This document shows, piece by piece, positions 18,377 through 55,218 of a stretch of 64,000 nucleotides of DNA. The position numbers and the translations under genes were made by a program. Within the stretch, counting starts at the first letter, position 1, and each line of letters opens with the position of its first letter. The notes under the pieces were generated by a model, which saw only the letters and a list, made by a program, of their open reading frames with translations, searched no databases and had not been told where the DNA came from. The stretch covers positions 128,320 through 192,319 of the forward strand of contig CAWIWL010000004.1 in the NCBI GenBank assembly GCA_963839705.1. Direction: 5' to 3'. The DNA is from an uncultured Acidobacteriota bacterium (GTDB lineage Bacteria > Acidobacteriota > Vicinamibacteria > Vicinamibacterales > 2-12-FULL-66-21).

Positions 18377-18534
18377 ACCTTCGCTCACGCTTGCAAGCCT
18401 GAGCGTGAGCTACGGTTGGCAAGCCACGCGAAGGTTGCGCGCCGAAGCTCGCGAAGCGACCGAAGGCGGGCCGCGGTTTTGAACCCACTGTCGGAAGCAC
18501 GCCAAGACGCACGATCCCTTACCTGCATTAAGAA

Positions 18535-48192: not shown

Positions 48193-48221
48193 TTGACCTA
48201 TTTGGGCTCGGCGCGTACAAT
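48193..48221 (+). promoter_or_regulatory. Sigma70-like promoter TTGACC-N17-TACAAT for ssrA
   Basis: TTGACC at 48193-48198, a 17-nt spacer, then TACAAT at 48216-48221, 20 nt upstream of the mature tmRNA 5' end. Confidence 0.6.
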
Positions 48222-48241: not shown

Positions 48242-48593
48242 GGGGGCGACTTAGATTCGACGGAGATATGGTTTCGCAGGATGCGTGCCGAGGACCATCA
48301 CCCTCGTAAATCAGATGGAAACAAACCTAACTGCGGACACGCAGCTCGCACTCGCAGCCTAAACCCCTGTGAGCGTCCCTTCCGGTCAGCCTGCGGGCCG
48401 GAAACGGATGTCATTTTAGCAGGCTGGCGGCTACCGGTTGCCCTGGACGGTAGCGGCGAGACTTCTCTGGGGCTGGCCTCCGGCGGTTTTGGCCGCGTCC
48501 TCACGCCGGGAGCGAGATATCAGATGCGGATACGCATCGTAGATTCCTGCGAGGATGTATTTTCGGACCCGGGTGCGAATCCCGGCGCCTCCA
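48242..48593 (+). ncRNA. ssrA: tmRNA (SsrA), CCA not encoded
   Basis: 5' end GGGGGCGACTTAGATTCGACGG. The acceptor GGGGGCG pairs with CGCCTCC (48586-48592) and includes the G3-U pair, followed by discriminator A. T arm is CCGGG-TGCGAAT-CCCGG. The internal tag frame ends ...GCG GAC ACG CAG CTC GCA CTC GCA GCC TAA (ADTQLALAA-stop, 48333-48362). Confidence 0.9.
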
Positions 48594-48608
48594 TTACTCA
48601 CTACGCTC

Positions 48609-48634
48609 GGTGGGGCCCCTTGTCGTTCCCCACC
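48609..48634 (+). terminator. Hairpin GGTGGGG-N12-CCCCACC just downstream of ssrA
   Basis: A 7-bp GC stem 16 nt after the tmRNA 3' end. Confidence 0.4.
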
Positions 48635-48795
48635 TCGCTGCGCGCTCGCCATGCGGCTCGCTTGCAGCCGCAGGCGCTCTGAGGCTGCTGGTCGTCATTC
48701 GGCTAGCTGCGGTCGCAGGCGTTCTGAATGTCCCGCTCTCAGGTGCCACTCGGCTCCGGTACCTCAATCCCTGTCCAGCCGGTACATCCCAACCT

Positions 48796-49000
48796 ATGTC
48801 AGACCGCTTCGAGCTCGGATTGGATACCTTCGGCGACGTCACCGCGGCGCCCGACGGCACGCTTCAATCGCAGGCGCAGGTGCTCCGCGACGTCGTCGAG
48901 GAAGCGGTCCTCGCCGACCAGGTGGGCATCGACGCCTTCGGCGTTGGCGAGCACCATCGCCGCGACTTCGCGATTTCCGCGCCCGAAGTCGTGCTGGCCG
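48796..49000 (+). pseudogene. Truncated 5' fragment (68 codons) of an LLM-class flavin oxidoreductase gene, copy of 51612..51816
   Basis: 48790-49000 aligns without gaps to 51606-51816 with 6 mismatches in 211 nt. Homology stops abruptly after ...GTGCTGGCCG. Confidence 0.8.
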
Positions 49001-49188
49001 TGCCGTCGGCGCTGAACTGCCGGAAGGGCACGTCGGACTCGATGCTCTTGGCTTCGTAGCCGGGCGCGTACTGTTTCTTGCTTTGGTTGAACAGCCGACT
49101 CCCGTGGAGAGCCTTATTGCATGAGGCGTTCCGGGTACTGAGTTGGCCCGGTTCGCGTAGTATTCGTTAGACCGTGCCGGTGCAAATT

Positions 49189-49728
49189 ATGAGAGCGGCG
49201 CCTTGCTGTCCTCTGTTCGTCTGCCATGCGAACTGCTGCCGGTCTGTTCTGGCTCGCTACCTCTATCGACATCTGTGTCGCCAGGCTCCGGCCCTCTCGG
49301 CGGGGTTAGAGGCGGGAGAGCGGATCAATGATCGCGCGGAACGAATGCTCCGAGAGTGGGGGATTGACGCGAGCGCACACTCACCGTTGCAGCTCTCGCG
49401 CGACTTGTGTGCGGAAGCCGGTGCGATCTTCGTGATGGGGCCGTCGTACTTGCACCGGGTCATCTGGGAGTATGGCGAAGACCTTGCCGACAAGGCGTAC
49501 CTATTCGCCGATCCGTTCACTAGACCGGTGTCTTTCGGTAGTGGGCAGTACAAGGTTTCCGATCCTTCGTTCGACACCCGACCGACGAGTGAACTACTGA
49601 AGGAGTTCGGGTGGATGCGCGAGCGGGTGCTGCAAATCCGACTCGCTCTGCTCGGGGACGGCAGACGGCTTGTCCCGATGAGCGAGTATCTCGAGCTGTG
49701 TAAGACGGTCGATCGTGGAAGCCATTGA
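49189..49728 (+). CDS. Low-molecular-weight phosphotyrosine phosphatase / ArsC-like protein
   Basis: P-loop LFVCHANCCRS (C-X5-R-S) near the N-terminus and a downstream FADPF Asp-Pro motif. 179 aa. Confidence 0.6.
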   Translation: MRAAPCCPLFVCHANCCRSVLARYLYRHLCRQAPALSAGLEAGERINDRAERMLREWGIDASAHSPLQLSRDLCAEAGAIFVMGPSYLHRVIWEYGEDLADKAYLFADPFTRPVSFGSGQYKVSDPSFDTRPTSELLKEFGWMRERVLQIRLALLGDGRRLVPMSEYLELCKTVDRGSH

Positions 49729-49929
49729 GCAGAGAGCCGGATGCGTCGGGAAACCGGATCCGGGGCGTCATTCGAAGCCGACACAGTTGATGGGGCATCG
49801 GAGCGATTGCGTTACCTATCATCTATCCAGCATCGCTCGGGCACGAGCTGGACCAGAACTCAATCAATCAGCCCTCGCGGTAGATTCACACTCACTCGCC
49901 GTGACGGGTCGGCTGAAAAAGGAGCAGGC

Positions 49930-50043
49930 ATGGGAGACAAGGGCGGCAAGAAGGACAAGGAAAAAAACAAACAACAGCAGCTGACGAAACAGAAACAAGA
50001 GGAGCAAAAGAAGCAGAACAAGGCCCGGCCAAAGGCACCCTGA
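49930..50043 (+). CDS. 37-aa lysine/glutamine-rich small protein (hypothetical)
   Basis: MGDKGGKKDKEKNKQQQLTKQKQEEQKKQNKARPKAP. A strong AAGGAG lies 7 nt upstream of the ATG. AT-rich codon usage contrasts with the surroundings. Confidence 0.4.
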   Translation: MGDKGGKKDKEKNKQQQLTKQKQEEQKKQNKARPKAP

Positions 50044-50107
50044 GCCGGCCAGTCAGAGGGATTCCAGGACCCACGCCGTGGCAGCCGATCGCCCCTTAGG
50101 GAGAATC

Positions 50108-50905
50108 ATGAGCGAAGATGCACACGCCCGACCGACACGCGAGGCGCCGGAGCCGCTGTACGACGTAAGTATCCCGACACCCACGCACGCGGAGCGCGCG
50201 CGAACATTGGTCGCCCAGATCTCGACCGGGACCCTGTGCACCCTGGCCCTGGAGCCGGAGGGCTATCCCTACGGCTCGTTCGTGACCGTCGCCTTCGACG
50301 ACGGAAACCCAATCTTCCTTATCAGCGGACTCGCCGAGCACACCAAGAACTTGGAGCGGGATCCTCGCGCGTCGCTGCTGGTGTCCGAGGGAGGCTCTGC
50401 AGATCCGCTCGCCAACGGCCGCGTCACCATCCTCGGACCGTGCACGCGCGTCGAAGGGGATCGCGGCAGCGCGCGTGTTGCATTCTTCGCTGCTCATCCG
50501 AACTCAAGCTACTACGCTGACTTCCGCGATTTCGCGTTCTGGAAGCTGCAGGTAAATCATGTCCGCTACATTGGGGGTTATGGCCGGATGTCGTGGATCA
50601 GCAAGGCTGACTGGCGGGCTGCCGAACCGGATCCCCTCGGTCCGTCGGCCGCCGGCCTGATTGCTCATATGAACGCCGACCACGCCGACGCCATGGTGCT
50701 CTACTGCACGGCCTTTTCAAAAGCGACCGAGATCACCACCGCGAGCATGACGGGCGTCGACAGGTACGACTTCGATATGTCGGTGATGACCCCAAAAGGG
50801 CCACGACCCGTCCGTCTGGCATTCCGCAAGCCGGTCAGCACGCCGGAGGAAGTACGCGCCGCTCTGATCTCTCTGGTGACGGACGCCAGGTCCAAGCTGG
50901 GCTGA
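50108..50905 (+). CDS. HugZ-like protein (pyridoxamine 5'-phosphate oxidase-like split barrel + DUF2470)
   Basis: ARTLVAQISTGTLCTL...GYPYGSFV ... RASLLV ... GRVTILG ... YIGGYGRMSWI ... HMNADHADAM is typical of the heme-utilisation HugZ/ChuZ-type family. Confidence 0.75.
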   Translation: MSEDAHARPTREAPEPLYDVSIPTPTHAERARTLVAQISTGTLCTLALEPEGYPYGSFVTVAFDDGNPIFLISGLAEHTKNLERDPRASLLVSEGGSADPLANGRVTILGPCTRVEGDRGSARVAFFAAHPNSSYYADFRDFAFWKLQVNHVRYIGGYGRMSWISKADWRAAEPDPLGPSAAGLIAHMNADHADAMVLYCTAFSKATEITTASMTGVDRYDFDMSVMTPKGPRPVRLAFRKPVSTPEEVRAALISLVTDARSKLG

Positions 50906-50940
50906 GGGGCACGGTAGGTGGTTCGGCGACGGAGGTTCTG

Positions 50941-51360
50941 ATGCGTCCGCAACCTCTCATCGCGGTGACTGATGTCGAAGCGAGCAGCCGGTGGTACCAG
51001 CGTCTCCTCGGCTGTCAGAGCGCGCACGGCGGGGCGGAATATGAGCGATTGGTCTCGAATGGTGCGCTGATCCTCCAGCTGCACCGTTTTGAGGTCGAAC
51101 ACCGCCACGGGCCGATCGGTAATCCTGATGACACGCCCTATGGCAACGGCGTGCTCCTGTGGTTTGAAATCGACGACTTCGATGCCGCAATCGCCCGGAT
51201 CGCCGAACTGAAGGCCGAGATCATCCACCCGCGCCATCGCAATCCTCCCGACGGTAACGGCGGTCCGAACCACTGGGAGTGCTGGTTGCGCGATCCTGAC
51301 GGCTACACAGTCGTGCTCGCCAGCCCGGACGGTTCAGCGGATGGAAATTGGAAACCTTAG
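50941..51360 (+). CDS. VOC (glyoxalase/bleomycin-resistance) family protein
   Basis: LIAVTDVEASSRWYQRLLG ... LWFEIDDFDAAIARI ... WLRDPDGYTVVLASP follows the beta-alpha-beta-beta-beta module pattern. Confidence 0.75.
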   Translation: MRPQPLIAVTDVEASSRWYQRLLGCQSAHGGAEYERLVSNGALILQLHRFEVEHRHGPIGNPDDTPYGNGVLLWFEIDDFDAAIARIAELKAEIIHPRHRNPPDGNGGPNHWECWLRDPDGYTVVLASPDGSADGNWKP

Positions 51361-51434
51361 CAGCTCGAAAAATCCCTGGAATCGATACGACGTGCTTGCC
51401 GTAAGTTATTGACAGGAAGGGTCTTCGACTGGTC

Positions 51435-51455
51435 CGAATCCCGGCGCCTCCACCA
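51435..51455 (+). repeat. Displaced tmRNA 3'-end fragment (CGAATCCCGGCGCCTCCA + CCA), putative attR
   Basis: Identical over 18 nt to 48576-48593. It retains the acceptor 3' strand, the discriminator and CCA but lacks the rest of the tmRNA. Confidence 0.7.
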
Positions 51456-51611
51456 ACCTTCGCTCTGGATTCACGCGCAGACCGCGTCCATGCGCAGTGA
51501 GTCGAATGGTGTCCTGAGCGCGCCGAGTCGAAGGACTGCCGAACCGCGACCCACCAACCGACCGTCGCCACACTTCCACACCCGCCCGCTCCCACTCGGA
51601 AAACTCAACCT

Positions 51612-52646
51612 ATGTCAGACCGCTTCGAGCTCGGATTAGATACCTTCGGCGATGTCACCGCGGCGCCCGACGGCACGCTTCGATCGCAGGCGCAGGTGCT
51701 CCGCGACGTCGTCGAGGAAGCGGTCCTCGCCGACCAGGTGGGAATCGACGCTTTCGGCGTTGGCGAGCACCATCGCCGCGACTTCGCGATCTCCGCGCCC
51801 GAAGTCGTGCTGGCCGCGATGGCCGGCCGAACCCGGAGAATCCTTCTCGGCTCGGCTGTCACTGTGCTCAGCACGGATGATGCCGTGCGGGTCTTCCAGC
51901 GGTTCTCGACGCTCAACGCGCTCTCGAACGGCCGCGCCGAGGTGATTCTCGGACGCGGCTCGTTCACCGAGTCATACCCGTTGTTCGGCTACGACCTGGC
52001 GCGCTATGAGGAGCTGTTCGACGACAAGCTGCGGCTGTTCGCTGCGCTCCTCAAGCCTGGACCGGTGACGTGGAGCGGCTCGACGAGGGCGCCGATCGTC
52101 GGCCTCACGATGTATCCGCCTGTCGAGGCGGGGACGCTGCGCACGTGGGTTGGCGTGGGCGGCAGCCCGGAGTCAGTTGTCCGCGCCGCGCGAAATGGCT
52201 TGCCGCTGACCCTCGCCATCATCGGTGGCAGCCCGCAAAGGTTTCGCCCCTTCGTGGATTTGTACCTGCAGTCGCTCGAGGAATTCGGGCAGCCCGTTCT
52301 ACCGATAGCCGTGCACTCCCCCGGCCATGTCGCAGCAACCGACGATCAGGCGAAGCACGAGCTCTGGCCGCACTATGAAGTAATGATCAATCGCATCGGC
52401 GGCGAGCGCGGATGGCCGCCGGCCACGCGGGCGCATTTCGAACGCGAAGCTGGCCCCGATGGCGCGCTCTGCGTCGGCTCGCCGGAAACGGTCGCCGCCA
52501 AGATCGCCAGGACGGCGAGACTCCTGGGCCTTGCGCGCTTCAATCTGAAATACAGCGCCGGCACCTTGCCGCACGCCGCGCTGAAGGCCAGCATCGAGCT
52601 GATTGGCACGAAGGTCGCGCCGCGCGTGCGCGAGCTGCTTGGGTAG
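51612..52646 (+). CDS. LLM-class (luciferase-like) flavin-dependent oxidoreductase
   Basis: 344 aa. FELGLDTFGD ... VGIDAFGVGEHH ... LGSAVTVLS ... NGRAEVILGRGS is the typical LLM TIM-barrel pattern. Confidence 0.85.
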   Translation: MSDRFELGLDTFGDVTAAPDGTLRSQAQVLRDVVEEAVLADQVGIDAFGVGEHHRRDFAISAPEVVLAAMAGRTRRILLGSAVTVLSTDDAVRVFQRFSTLNALSNGRAEVILGRGSFTESYPLFGYDLARYEELFDDKLRLFAALLKPGPVTWSGSTRAPIVGLTMYPPVEAGTLRTWVGVGGSPESVVRAARNGLPLTLAIIGGSPQRFRPFVDLYLQSLEEFGQPVLPIAVHSPGHVAATDDQAKHELWPHYEVMINRIGGERGWPPATRAHFEREAGPDGALCVGSPETVAAKIARTARLLGLARFNLKYSAGTLPHAALKASIELIGTKVAPRVRELLG

Positions 52647-52658
52647 CGCGCGAGACGA

Positions 52659-52868
52659 TTGAAACCGTTGCCGACACGCGGCGAAACTCTAGCGCACGGC
52701 CCGTTGCAATTGCCCACGCCCGATGGCTCGGGACGCATCCGCTACGTCGGCGAACTGTCGATTGGGGCGGTTGGCGCCGCACCCGGCGATTACGTGCTGC
52801 GACTGACGGTGACGAAGAACGGCCGCAGCATAGTACGGGAGGCCGCGTTCACGATAGCCGTGCCCTGA
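52659..52868 (+). pseudogene. Possible orphan C-terminal gene fragment
   Basis: 69-aa ORF ending ...PGDYVLRLTVTKNGRSIVREAAFTIAVP. It looks like the terminal beta-sandwich tail of larger secreted proteins. It has no RBS or N-terminal domain and lies in the rearranged ssrA-proximal region. Confidence 0.3.
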
Positions 52869-52896: not shown

Positions 52897-55110
52897 TTAC
52901 TTCGAGAGGTCACCGTAGAACTTCCAGTCGATGATCATATCGCGCGTCAGCTTGAGCCGCGTGTTGACGGCCAGGCGCAGCAGCGCGATCGGCATACTGC
53001 CCTGGCGCATGATCTCGTCGTGGAACTGGGCGTTCGTCATGATCTTCGTATCAACGAGCTCCTTGCGTAAGCCGCGCAGCTGCAGGCCGCCGAGGAGGTA
53101 CGCGGCCTGATAGAGCGGCCCATATCCAGCGGCCGGATCGAACGAGCGGCGGACTTCAGCCGTGGCGTTGTCGCGCTCGTGGCCCACGCGATCGACGAGG
53201 AAATCGATGGCCTCCTGCGGCGACCACTGCCCCATGTGGAACTTGAGTGAGAAGATGATGCGCGCGCAGCGGTGCATGCGCCAGAAGAGCGCGCCGACTC
53301 GTTGTTCGGGCGTCTTGTTGAAGCCGAGATCGTACAGCGTCAGCTCCCAGTAGAGCGGCCAACCCTCGCCGAAGAACGGTCCGCCACCGCTCAAGTTCGC
53401 GCGATAGTCGTCGAAGCGTGCACTCAGGTAACCGACGAGGTTGTGCCCGGGAATCATCTCGTGGTGAGCCGTGGCGTGCGAGAAGCCCGGATTGTTGCCG
53501 CGCATGCTCTGGATGCGCGCGTCGTAGTCCATCGTGTTGGTCGGATACGAGACGCTCATCTGGCCGCCGCCGGTGAAGAACGGATTCACGAGCTGGCGCT
53601 CGGGCGTCATCATGATCATGTGCAGCGATTCGGCGGCCACCTGCGGCACGGTGATCAGCCGGTTCGCGCGCAGGTAGTCGACGGCCTCGACGAGCAGGTC
53701 CATGATCATCCGCGGCTGGCCGCCGGGCGGGACGGCGCTGTCCTTTGTCTTCTCGACCGCTTTCTTCCAGTCGGCCCCGAAGCCCATCTCGCGCGAGGCC
53801 TTGAGCATTTCCTGATCGCACCACGCGAACTCCTTCTCGGCGAGCGCGATCAGCTCCTCCGGGGTGTAGGGAATCAGGGCTTCGGATAGATCCTGGATCA
53901 GGCCTTCGCGGCCACGCGCCGGGCCCGGAATGCCGGTCGAATCCGGCTTCCGGGGCGGGTCGGGGTCGAGCTTCAGATTGGCGCGCGCAATTTGCGTCTC
54001 GGCCGTCCGGCGGATAAAGAGGTAGTCAACCTGCGCGTTGCGCGAGAGCTTGTCGAAGTCGAGCGACTTGAGCGCCGCCAGCCAGCTCGTGTAGAACGCC
54101 ACGTCGCGCGGCGGTCCGCTCGGTGCGCCACGCCCGCCGCCTCCGCGCCCGGCTCCGCCACTCCCGCTGAATCGCGCCACGATTTCGCGCATCTCATCCT
54201 GCGGCAGCGCGATGATCTCGTTCAGGTCCGGCACGTCGGAGTACTTCAGTTGCGCCCCGGGAACGATCGGTTCGCTGGCGGCTGGCGTGGCAGCAACCTG
54301 GAGGTTCTCGGCCGCGACCTTCTCGCGCAGCAGCACCGCATAGCTCTGGAGGGCCTCATCCACCTTCGCGTAGGGCATCCCCATCCACCACGTGAAGAGC
54401 GGATCGTAGCCGTTATAGAAGGTGAACCACTCGGTCGTGATCGTCCGCAGTTGATCGACGGCGGTCGCGCCGAGGACTGCCTGCTCGCGGTTCACCCGCG
54501 GCGGCGTGGCCGTCAGCCGGGCGATTTCCCGGGTGACGGCGGTGATCGTCGCGGCGGCGCGTTGGGCGTTCATGTCCTCGACGCGGATCCGCGCTTCGAC
54601 CAACTGGACGAGCGTGGGCGCGAACGGCGCGGTGGCGATCACCTGCGCCATCGTCAGCGCCTCAGCGTCGAGCCGCGCCAGGTTGGCTGTAATCGTCGAC
54701 TTGAGGCCGTCGAGATCCGTCTTCGCAGCGGGCGTGAGCTTCGCCGTGTCGATACGCCCGACCGCGGCCTGCCAGTTGGCGTCGAATCGCTTCAGCCGAG
54801 CGATGCGCGCAGCCGAGAGCGGCACCGGCGGGGGTGGCGCGGCCACCGGTGACCCCGCCGAGGCATCACCGCCCCGTTGCCCAGGCCCACCACGGCCACC
54901 ACGCCCTCCCCGGCCGGACCCGTTGGCGTAGTTGCCTGAGAGCGTCGTTCGATCCAGGTTGTACCGAAGCGCCACCATCCGCATCTCGCTTTGCGGCGCG
55001 GCGAGGAGCGGCGTCAGGTCGGAAGGAACTGACTGGTCCTGTGCGTAAGGACCGTGGCTCAAAAGGACGAAAAGGGCTGCTGCGACCAGCAGGGGGCGTC
55101 GCGTGGGCAT
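52897..55110 (-). CDS. DUF885-family (metallopeptidase-like) secreted protein
   Basis: Signal peptide (LLVAAALFVLLSHGPYAQD), Gly/Arg-rich low-complexity inserts, and C-terminal core with ATAHHEMIPGHNL and EGWPLYWE motifs. Start set at ATG 55110. Confidence 0.7.
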   Translation of the reverse strand: MPTRRPLLVAAALFVLLSHGPYAQDQSVPSDLTPLLAAPQSEMRMVALRYNLDRTTLSGNYANGSGRGGRGGRGGPGQRGGDASAGSPVAAPPPPVPLSAARIARLKRFDANWQAAVGRIDTAKLTPAAKTDLDGLKSTITANLARLDAEALTMAQVIATAPFAPTLVQLVEARIRVEDMNAQRAAATITAVTREIARLTATPPRVNREQAVLGATAVDQLRTITTEWFTFYNGYDPLFTWWMGMPYAKVDEALQSYAVLLREKVAAENLQVAATPAASEPIVPGAQLKYSDVPDLNEIIALPQDEMREIVARFSGSGGAGRGGGGRGAPSGPPRDVAFYTSWLAALKSLDFDKLSRNAQVDYLFIRRTAETQIARANLKLDPDPPRKPDSTGIPGPARGREGLIQDLSEALIPYTPEELIALAEKEFAWCDQEMLKASREMGFGADWKKAVEKTKDSAVPPGGQPRMIMDLLVEAVDYLRANRLITVPQVAAESLHMIMMTPERQLVNPFFTGGGQMSVSYPTNTMDYDARIQSMRGNNPGFSHATAHHEMIPGHNLVGYLSARFDDYRANLSGGGPFFGEGWPLYWELTLYDLGFNKTPEQRVGALFWRMHRCARIIFSLKFHMGQWSPQEAIDFLVDRVGHERDNATAEVRRSFDPAAGYGPLYQAAYLLGGLQLRGLRKELVDTKIMTNAQFHDEIMRQGSMPIALLRLAVNTRLKLTRDMIIDWKFYGDLSK

Positions 55111-55218
55111 GACGATCGATCTCCTCAAGCCCAGCAGCTTACTGCGACTCCGCCCCGGAAGCGCAGTTCGTTCTGTTGATGGCCCTATCAACGCGCGCAA
55201 GGGTTGGCGAACGGGGGG

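Follow-up and report, generated by a model that had tools for sequence, protein, structure and literature searches.

Probable relic of an ssrA-targeted insertion, rebuilt by later recombination, in an uncultured Vicinamibacterales genome

The tmRNA gene and two direct repeats behind it

This analysis concerns the DNA downstream of ssrA, the gene for transfer-messenger RNA (tmRNA), in the genome of an uncultured Acidobacteriota bacterium of the order Vicinamibacterales (GenBank assembly GCA_963839705.1). The stretch analysed, here called the window, comprises 64,000 nucleotides of contig CAWIWL010000004.1 (positions 128,320 to 192,319); coordinates without a contig label are those of the window. 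A complete tmRNA gene, encoding the tag ADTQLALAA, occupies positions 48242-48593 of the plus strand; it had been recognized in an initial annotation made from the sequence alone, and both ARAGORN and a full-length match to the Rfam family RF00023 (48242-48596, 157 bits, E-value 4.8e-63) agree with that call. A sigma-70-like promoter, TTGACC-17-TACAAT (48193-48221, plus strand; 10 of 12 consensus matches), lies upstream, 21 nt from the start of the tmRNA.

The last 18 nt of the gene, CGAATCCCGGCGCCTCCA, which extend from the T-loop to the discriminator position (48576-48593), are repeated exactly at 51435-51452, as the initial annotation had pointed out. The number of matches expected from shuffled sequence is 0.01, and this 18-mer occurs only twice in the whole genome (8.77 Mb in 22 contigs), which rules out a dispersed repeat; with one mismatch allowed, the repeat grows to 22 nt (21 of 22 identical). 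The terminal CCA is not encoded by ssrA: the three nucleotides behind the gene read TTA, and those behind the second copy read CCA.

A second, longer direct repeat is also present. A gene for a luciferase-like monooxygenase (LLM; 51612-52646, plus strand; Pfam E-value 1.8e-45) begins 160 nt beyond the second ssrA copy, and its 5' end, denoted here LLM', is also present between ssrA and that copy, so that positions 48790-49000 and 51606-51816 (211 nt, 97.2% identity) form a direct repeat. The repeat starts 6 nt before the ATG and ends at codon 68/69; the right copy thus consists of 6 upstream nucleotides and the first 205 nt of the intact gene, and the left copy, on the plus strand, starts with ATG at 48796 and retains 68 codons (Pfam Bac_luciferase, residues 20-69). 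The initial annotation had listed the truncated gene copy, and the Bac_luciferase match confirms it, but its role as a second direct repeat had gone unused. The two spacers that separate the ssrA sequence from the LLM sequence, spacer 1 on the left (48683-48789, 107 nt) and spacer 2 on the right (51480-51605, between the native-type flank described below and the intact LLM gene), cannot be aligned with each other.

No recombinase gene was detected in the interval between the two ssrA copies, in agreement with the initial annotation: Pfam analysis of all open reading frames (ORFs) in the interval yielded no integrase, and there is no match to Phage_integrase (PF00589) in or near it (176-181 kb of the contig, C4), the nearest one on this contig being located at the far end (C4:184-744).

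ssrA as an integration site in related genomes

The genomes used for comparison belong to uncultured Vicinamibacterales of the phylum Acidobacteriota; the tmRNA gene was located in 35 of the 41 related genomes, and the 12 kb downstream of ssrA were compared with the window for ten members of the genus and one sister genus. In this genus, ssrA is an insertion hot spot, and an integrative island family targets the ssrA segment between the T-loop and the 3' end. The similarity to the window ends exactly at base 48593 in 10 of the 12 relatives compared, and three types of sequence come after the core, namely, the left end of the islands and two flanks, A and B. The island left end, CTTTTTAACTG...TGTACCTGAAATGTACCG, follows the core in six genomes (G001, G002, G004, G006, G007, and G009), and remnants of an integrase gene are recognizable behind it in three of these: 249 amino acids with a Phage_int_M match in G009 and 94 amino acids in G007, both directly behind the core, and short pieces in G001, behind the first two attR sites (attR1 and attR2). 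The other ends of the islands are marked by displaced ssrA 3' fragments in G001, G002, G007, and G009, preceded in G001, G002, and G009 by a right arm of about 125 nt with the direct repeats TGTACCTGTTTTGTACC (TGTACC repeats). Three such fragments stand in tandem in G001 (positions 782, 18262, and 40622 of contig C4 of that genome), with the island left end after the first two and flank A after the last. The islands at ssrA span 25.4 kb in G007, where the right arm is also truncated, and 6.9 kb in G002. By contrast with these occupied loci, G008 represents an empty site, in which the ssrA core is followed, after 158 nt, by a DUF885 gene. The counterpart of this gene in the window (52897-55200, minus strand; Pfam) is the first backbone gene shared with relatives and marks the right edge of the variable region. 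Together, the common end of similarity at 48593, the displaced fragments, and the empty site bear out the earlier suggestion that ssrA served as an integration site.

With respect to backbone DNA, the nearest relatives are G006 (87% identity) and G002 (83-86%; 86% over 8.1 kb starting at 52899), and the others are 72-76% identical to the window. An intact integrase of the ssrA-island family was not found, fragments being present in G009, G007, and G001, and none in G000; the integrase of the G006 island is XerC-like and unrelated to that of the family. The initial annotation had proposed a genome search for an integrase with the same attachment core. The family integrase fragment gave no tblastn match anywhere in the genome of the window.

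Traces of the same and of a sister family are seen elsewhere in the genome of the window. On contig C19 (36150-36420, minus strand), a right arm with TGTACC repeats, a core with one mismatch, CGAATCCCGGCGCATCCA, and the family left end are joined, with no tmRNA gene nearby; the joined pieces might represent either a site of the attP type in a resident element or a tandem-array junction that was relocated. A C-terminal integrase fragment (C19:30280-30645) is located 5.6 kb away. On contig C11 (59755-102000), at least four displaced 3' fragments, GAATCCCACCCTCTCCGCCA, lie behind the tRNA-Ser(cga) gene, at 76568, 83853, 94569, and 100441; for three of these, the exact arm repeat CTGTACCTGTTTTGTACC, present five times on C11, is found about 100 nt upstream. 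This array amounts to approximately 42 kb of tandem islands of a sister family, has arm sites in common with the ssrA islands, and contains no PF00589 match. Furthermore, cargo of the G007 ssrA island (locus L030, 938-6739) is 91-93% identical to contig C21 (45-8906) of the genome of the window, the backbone DNA being far more diverged, which looks like another recent transfer between species.

The second ssrA copy in the window can be assigned to this island family. The 57 nt immediately upstream of it (51378-51434, plus strand) align with the attR arms of G001 (three arms), G002, and G009 at 80-86% identity, corresponding to the proximal part of the right arm; the distal 65 nt of the arm, which carry the TGTACCTGTTTTGTACC repeats, are absent. 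Because these 57 nt match the family right arm, the second copy (51435-51452, plus strand), a displaced ssrA 3' fragment that forms the attR core, is identified by its sequence context as part of a genuine, albeit truncated, attR. On its other side lies flank B, CCA-ACCTTCGCTC... (51453-51479, plus strand), which is cut after about 27 nt, within the first half of a hairpin; the arm, the 18-nt core, and the 27 nt of flank B, about 100 nt altogether, are what survives of the original island junction. Flank B stands immediately behind ssrA in G003 and G008 as well as in G021 and G023, members of two other genera, and behind attR in G002; the CCA-ACCTTCGCTC sequence is also found at 18377-18400, after the window's tRNA-Val gene, which encodes its CCA. 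Given these positions after ssrA, attR, and tRNA-Val, flank B is a generic native 3' flank of t(m)RNA genes in this clade, and the view taken in the initial annotation that the CCA-bearing fragment is the native end holds up. Of the arrangement that had been sought in relatives, ssrA followed by the sequence beyond the second copy and then by LLM, the first part was recovered in the four genomes with flank B after ssrA, but LLM sits beside ssrA in no other genome examined.

The G008 version of flank B folds as a hairpin (z = -2.8). Similar double hairpins are found behind ssrA in both G003 and G008 and, in G007, behind tRNA-Gly; hairpins of this type look like a common terminator or a repetitive extragenic palindromic (REP)-like element after t(m)RNA genes of the clade.

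The left junction differs from that of the family. Directly after the intact ssrA, where the left end CTTTTTAACTG...TGTACCTGAAATGTACCG and the integrase gene would be situated in an island of this family, the window contains flank A (48594-48682, plus strand), with the motif TT(A/T)...CGCTCGGTGGGGCCCC...CCCCACC and a GGTGGGG...CCCCACC hairpin in the computed fold; the only copy of the family left end in this genome is at C19:36250. Flank A is a native-type downstream flank of ssrA: it directly follows the gene in G005 and in G018, of a sister genus, and follows the last displaced fragment in G001 and G009, the backbone gene in the latter beginning 160 nt further. As a sequence element, flank A is single-copy in the genome of the window and dispersed in some relatives, with 10 copies in G022, three of which are spaced 109 nt apart, and a tandem pair after attR in G009.

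These observations bear on the simplest account of the locus, in which 48594-51452 is one island inserted in a native ssrA-CCA-flank B locus, which brought its own ssrA 3' end with flank A as its left end, carried LLM' and the genes next to it as original cargo, and lost its integrase by internal deletion. The core repeat, the island right arm, and the native flank B are indeed all present, and a hairpin-like flank A could provide the terminator that an island must supply for the regenerated ssrA. Nevertheless, we consider a single island rather unlikely, given that flank A lies past the last attR in G001 and G009 and directly behind ssrA in G005 and in G018 of another genus, that is, in the position of chromosomal flank; that all six occupied relatives share a different, conserved left end and integrase remnants; and that the cargo meets the truncated arm at a novel junction, beyond which the same cargo runs on for about 94 nt in two other genomes (G012 and G001). 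In a variant of this scenario, two related LLM-carrying elements would have integrated in tandem and subsequently suffered a deletion. Tandem arrays are known in G001 and at tRNA-Ser on contig C11, but this route is less likely than the two described below, since in four other genomes flank A has the character of chromosomal DNA.

A mosaic cargo module between the junctions

The bulk of the interval (49123-51371, plus strand) is a horizontally circulating mosaic module that is 88-98% identical, at the nucleotide level, to DNA at other loci and ends 6 nt before the right arm. It consists of four intact ORFs, all on the plus strand, that encode a low-molecular-weight protein tyrosine phosphatase (LMW-PTP; 49174-49728, Pfam), a 37-amino-acid Lys/Gln-rich protein (49930-50043), a HugZ-like protein (PNPOx/CREG plus DUF2470; 50108-50905, Pfam), and a VOC/glyoxalase protein (50941-51360, Pfam). 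Pfam agrees with the gene calls made earlier for the interval, minor corrections being the ATG of the LLM fragment at 48796 and the start of the 37-amino-acid ORF at 49930.

The module is single-copy in this genome and was found at other loci in at least seven other species of three genera. Its identity to the window is 96-98% in G012, 95-97% in G009, 95% in G007, 93-96% in G010 (two copies), 93% in G001, and, in two other genera, 93% in G018 and 88% in G023; the backbone DNA of module-bearing genomes is 72-87% identical to the window, compared with 88-98% for the module. The sub-blocks (PTP, Lys-rich ORF, HugZ-like, and VOC) are recombined differently from genome to genome, with block ends that vary by up to 188 nt, and the DNA around module copies elsewhere contains further high-identity blocks common to pairs of genomes. 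Some copies are adjacent to t(m)RNA genes: that of G012 is inside a 7-kb segment bounded by a 24-nt direct repeat of a tRNA-Arg 3' end, with an IS481 transposase fragment adjoining, and that of G007 lies about 1.8 kb beyond a tRNA-Gly gene. In the ssrA position itself, this cargo is absent from the 11 relatives compared. Judged by these nucleotide comparisons, the foreign origin of the cargo is established.

The suggested check of composition gave a mixed result: the GC content of the interval is low (0.619, 6th percentile of genome windows; 0.614, 4th percentile, for the module), but its tetranucleotide distance is unremarkable, 13.5% of genome windows being as far or farther, so that composition amounts to weak evidence. 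Several copies of the module are broken, by a stop codon in the PTP gene of G007 and by indels in G010, G012, and G018. In recent copies, synonymous and non-synonymous codon changes are about equally frequent, a pattern that suggests weak constraint on the module.

HugZ-like genes without the module neighbours are common in the order, at 72-85% protein identity. The 37-amino-acid ORF (MGDKGGKKDKEKNKQQQLTKQKQEEQKKQNKARPKAP) has counterparts of equal length in G012, G007, and G001, and its initial 35 codons can be matched in G010 and G023 as well (91-98% nucleotide identity); the ORF stands upstream of the HugZ-like gene in G012, G007, G001, and G023, with an intergenic spacer of 24 to about 200 nt. 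It may represent a real small protein linked to the HugZ-like gene.

The module is bordered on the left by a 121-nt orphan fragment between two breakpoints (49001-49122), possibly a minus-strand coding remnant. Neither this fragment nor spacer 1 (48683-48789) has homologs in the same genome, the 40 relatives, or the fetched loci. Altogether, at least four novel junctions can be placed within the interval, at about 48683-48790, at 49000/49001, at 49122/49123, and at 51371-51377, and further ones are apparent at about 51479 and beyond LLM, where a C-terminal gene fragment (69-amino-acid ORF, 52659-52868, plus strand) with no Pfam family, absent from G008 and G002, separates LLM from the DUF885 gene.

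Such a patchwork raises the question of an assembly artefact, in which the metagenome assembler would have strung together two co-existing variants of the ssrA-LLM locus from different strains, so that the arrangement exists in no cell. The genome is a metagenome-assembled genome (MAG) of 22 contigs, and the LLM copies resemble alleles from two lineages. Mis-joins between strains, however, fall inside shared sequence and collapse it, whereas LLM' ends against unrelated single-copy DNA at 49000/49001, more unique junctions follow, and no piece occurs more than once in the assembly; with its junctions in unique sequence, the locus is very unlikely to be a strain chimera.

Reconstruction of the locus and comparison with known systems

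The two LLM copies provide the evidence on how the left part of the interval was acquired. Five of the six differences between them are synonymous third-position changes. Polarization against nine orthologs assigns the derived state to the full-length copy at five of the six sites, four of them GC-to-AT changes; the LLM' fragment keeps the common states, with no indel. If the fragment were an old duplicate formed in place that had evolved neutrally for as long as the gene, about 16 changes would be expected in it, compared with at most one observed; the expected figure is a hand estimate that takes some 4 synonymous changes in some 52 synonymous sites as its basis. This shortfall points to LLM copies that come from two lineages and were joined recently; as alleles of this kind, they would be hard to fit with an old duplication in situ. 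A segmental duplication of the region from the ssrA 3' end to the LLM 5' end, later diverged and interrupted by insertions, would account for the direct orientation of both repeats and for their common order (core, then LLM 5' end) with no island integration at all. We nonetheless find it scarcely credible, considering that the spacers cannot be aligned while the coding part is 97% identical, that a family-specific island arm precedes the right copy, and that derived changes are fewer in the fragment, which is non-functional, than in the working gene.

The LLM gene is, for its part, an accessory gene that can move. In relatives, orthologous genes (76-79% identity) are located 78-140 kb from ssrA or on other contigs, the one in G008 lies between two genes that are adjacent in the genome of the window, and the gene is absent from the ssrA loci of G008 and G002. 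The upstream motifs do not tell which of the two copies keeps the native promoter. Orthologs from metagenome loci (L059-L090) carry the motif GATAGACTCGA / GGTACACTCGA 7-10 nt upstream of the start codon and no Shine-Dalgarno sequence; the motif may be the -10 box of leaderless or near-leaderless transcripts.

Thus, the locus contains an attR relic of a defined island family at a site that is empty in a relative, its interior is a patchwork, and it has no recombinase. We favor, with moderate confidence, the interpretation that the interval is what remains of a site-specific insertion into ssrA that was later rebuilt by other recombination, and is now a decayed, immobile patchwork. The non-family left junction, the truncated arm, and the separate history of the module together imply at least two recombination events in addition to the integration. 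The island footprint proposed in the initial annotation is accordingly retained as to the integration relic, with its attR and native flank B, but not as to a single island that supplied its own replacement 3' end; likewise, of the proposed choice between a decayed island and cargo fixed after loss of the integration module, the decay and the missing integrase stand, but the cargo is a separately circulating mosaic that meets the arm at a novel junction.

The sequence of events may have been as follows. An island would have integrated into the native ssrA-flank B locus, a state that is still seen in G002, and its body, integrase gene, and distal arm would then have been lost. Flank A, spacer 1, and codons 1-68 of LLM' would have been copied from the DNA downstream of ssrA in a different but closely related lineage, with the joint exactly at the core. 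This copy could have entered by flank capture, that is, aberrant excision followed by re-entry in the manner of specialised transduction, or by homology-anchored recombination, illegitimate or of the Campbell type, at ssrA or at the LLM 5' end; at the level of what is found, there is a direct duplication adjoining att, one copy of which ends at an illegitimate junction and differs from the other to the extent of an allele. Two routes can be envisaged. In route (a), aberrant excision in a host with flank A would yield a circle of the order X-module-arm-core-A-spacer1-LLM'5', which would recombine at the core with a resident ssrA-B-spacer2-LLM locus. In route (b), a circle or fragment of the order X-module-arm-core-B-spacer2-LLM5' from a host with flank B would recombine, via the 211-nt LLM homology, with ssrA-A-spacer1-LLM'. 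Both routes give the observed order exactly, and we rate them about equal: route (a) fits the native position of flank B in the nearest relatives, and route (b) would demand no more than RecA action on a 211-nt homology, instead of on 18 nt or a crippled att site. The module of PTP, Lys-rich, HugZ-like, and VOC genes would have come horizontally from the DNA pool of t(m)RNA-linked islands of these soil bacteria. In its present state, the structure would be immobile, and loss would be plausible only by a RecA-dependent deletion, with the 211-nt LLM repeats or, in rare cases, the 18-mers as its endpoints.

Several points weigh against this reconstruction. Neither parental arrangement, ssrA-A-LLM' with an intact gene or island-attR-B-LLM, was observed, and LLM is near ssrA in no other genome examined, so that both postulated parents must be close relatives with that adjacency. 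No conspecific genome or metagenome contig was found, and an exact-protein look-up of LLM gave no match; in a metagenome scan with LLM, the best of 80 loci reached 86% protein identity, and none was near ssrA, flank A, or flank B. Outgroups that are 76-86% identical make the polarization of synonymous sites noisy. The similarity of the right arm to those of the family (80-86%) is out of step with the phylogeny and thus fits an inherited and an imported attR relic alike. Finally, the genome is a MAG.

A more far-reaching possibility is that an integrase-less package continues to pass from one Vicinamibacterales species to another, in the form of an ssrA-island remnant with two pieces captured from its former host, the ssrA terminator and the 5' part of the gene next to it, entering through the captured homology (the ssrA core or the LLM 5' end) or with the help of a trans-acting integrase of the TGTACC-arm family. 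A package of this kind would explain the 88-98% identity of the module across three genera and its t(m)RNA-adjacent sites in several genomes; we hold the idea to be quite unlikely.

The tmRNA gene is documented here as an active insertion hot spot in uncultured soil Acidobacteriota (Vicinamibacterales), with an island family defined by its att core, arm repeats, and decayed integrase, and with small accessory gene modules that moved recently between species and genera. For island-finding software, the locus is a caution that the DNA between perfect copies of a t(m)RNA fragment need not be a single island. In itself, it is an ordinary kind of genome scar that involves no new mechanism and answers no long-standing question.

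Among known systems, integron cassette arrays resemble the module in their short, same-strand, tightly packed single genes that occur in varying combinations across genomes. An integron-cassette reading was rejected: there is no integron integrase (IntI-type) or other tyrosine recombinase nearby, the block ends are variable rather than fixed, and the intergenic gaps of the module, 35-64 nt, leave too little room for attC sites (judged by length, with no formal model of attC).

Islands linked to ssrA include CP4-57 of E. coli and VPI of Vibrio cholerae, and such islands are reportedly treated by Williams (2003) in 'Traffic at the tmRNA gene'. The locus shares with t(m)RNA islands the intact target gene at one end (48242-48593), at the opposite end a direct repeat (51435-51452) that is the displaced, non-dispersed 3' part of this gene, and a core that runs from the T-loop to the discriminator; the truncated right arm beside the displaced core is that of the ssrA-island family, the interval is absent from the same site in a relative, and relatives also display tandem arrays and an integrase gene beside the regenerated gene. 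Unlike these islands, the locus has no integrase and 57 nt of one arm only, its ssrA is abutted by a chromosomal-type flank and a host-gene fragment instead of the island's own end, and its content is a patchwork with several illegitimate junctions. In the Islander/TIGER definition of tyrosine-integrase islands in t(m)RNA genes, the target is regenerated and the displaced fragment marks the far end (PMC4383910). Because the integrase and the island-side left end are both missing, we class the locus as a decayed relic with secondary rearrangement and not as an island.

The acquisition of the left part can be compared with two further systems. Flank capture in specialised transduction is exemplified by lambda dgal/dbio, and homology-facilitated illegitimate recombination was reportedly described by de Vries and Wackernagel in 2002. 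Unlike in these systems, the locus has no phage or excision machinery, and the likeness is one of outcome, the route being deduced from the end product. What the locus has in common with them is a piece of chromosome adjoining att, namely, the ssrA terminator and the first 68 codons of the neighbouring gene, that is present in direct duplicate, differs from the resident copy at the allelic level, and ends at an illegitimate junction.

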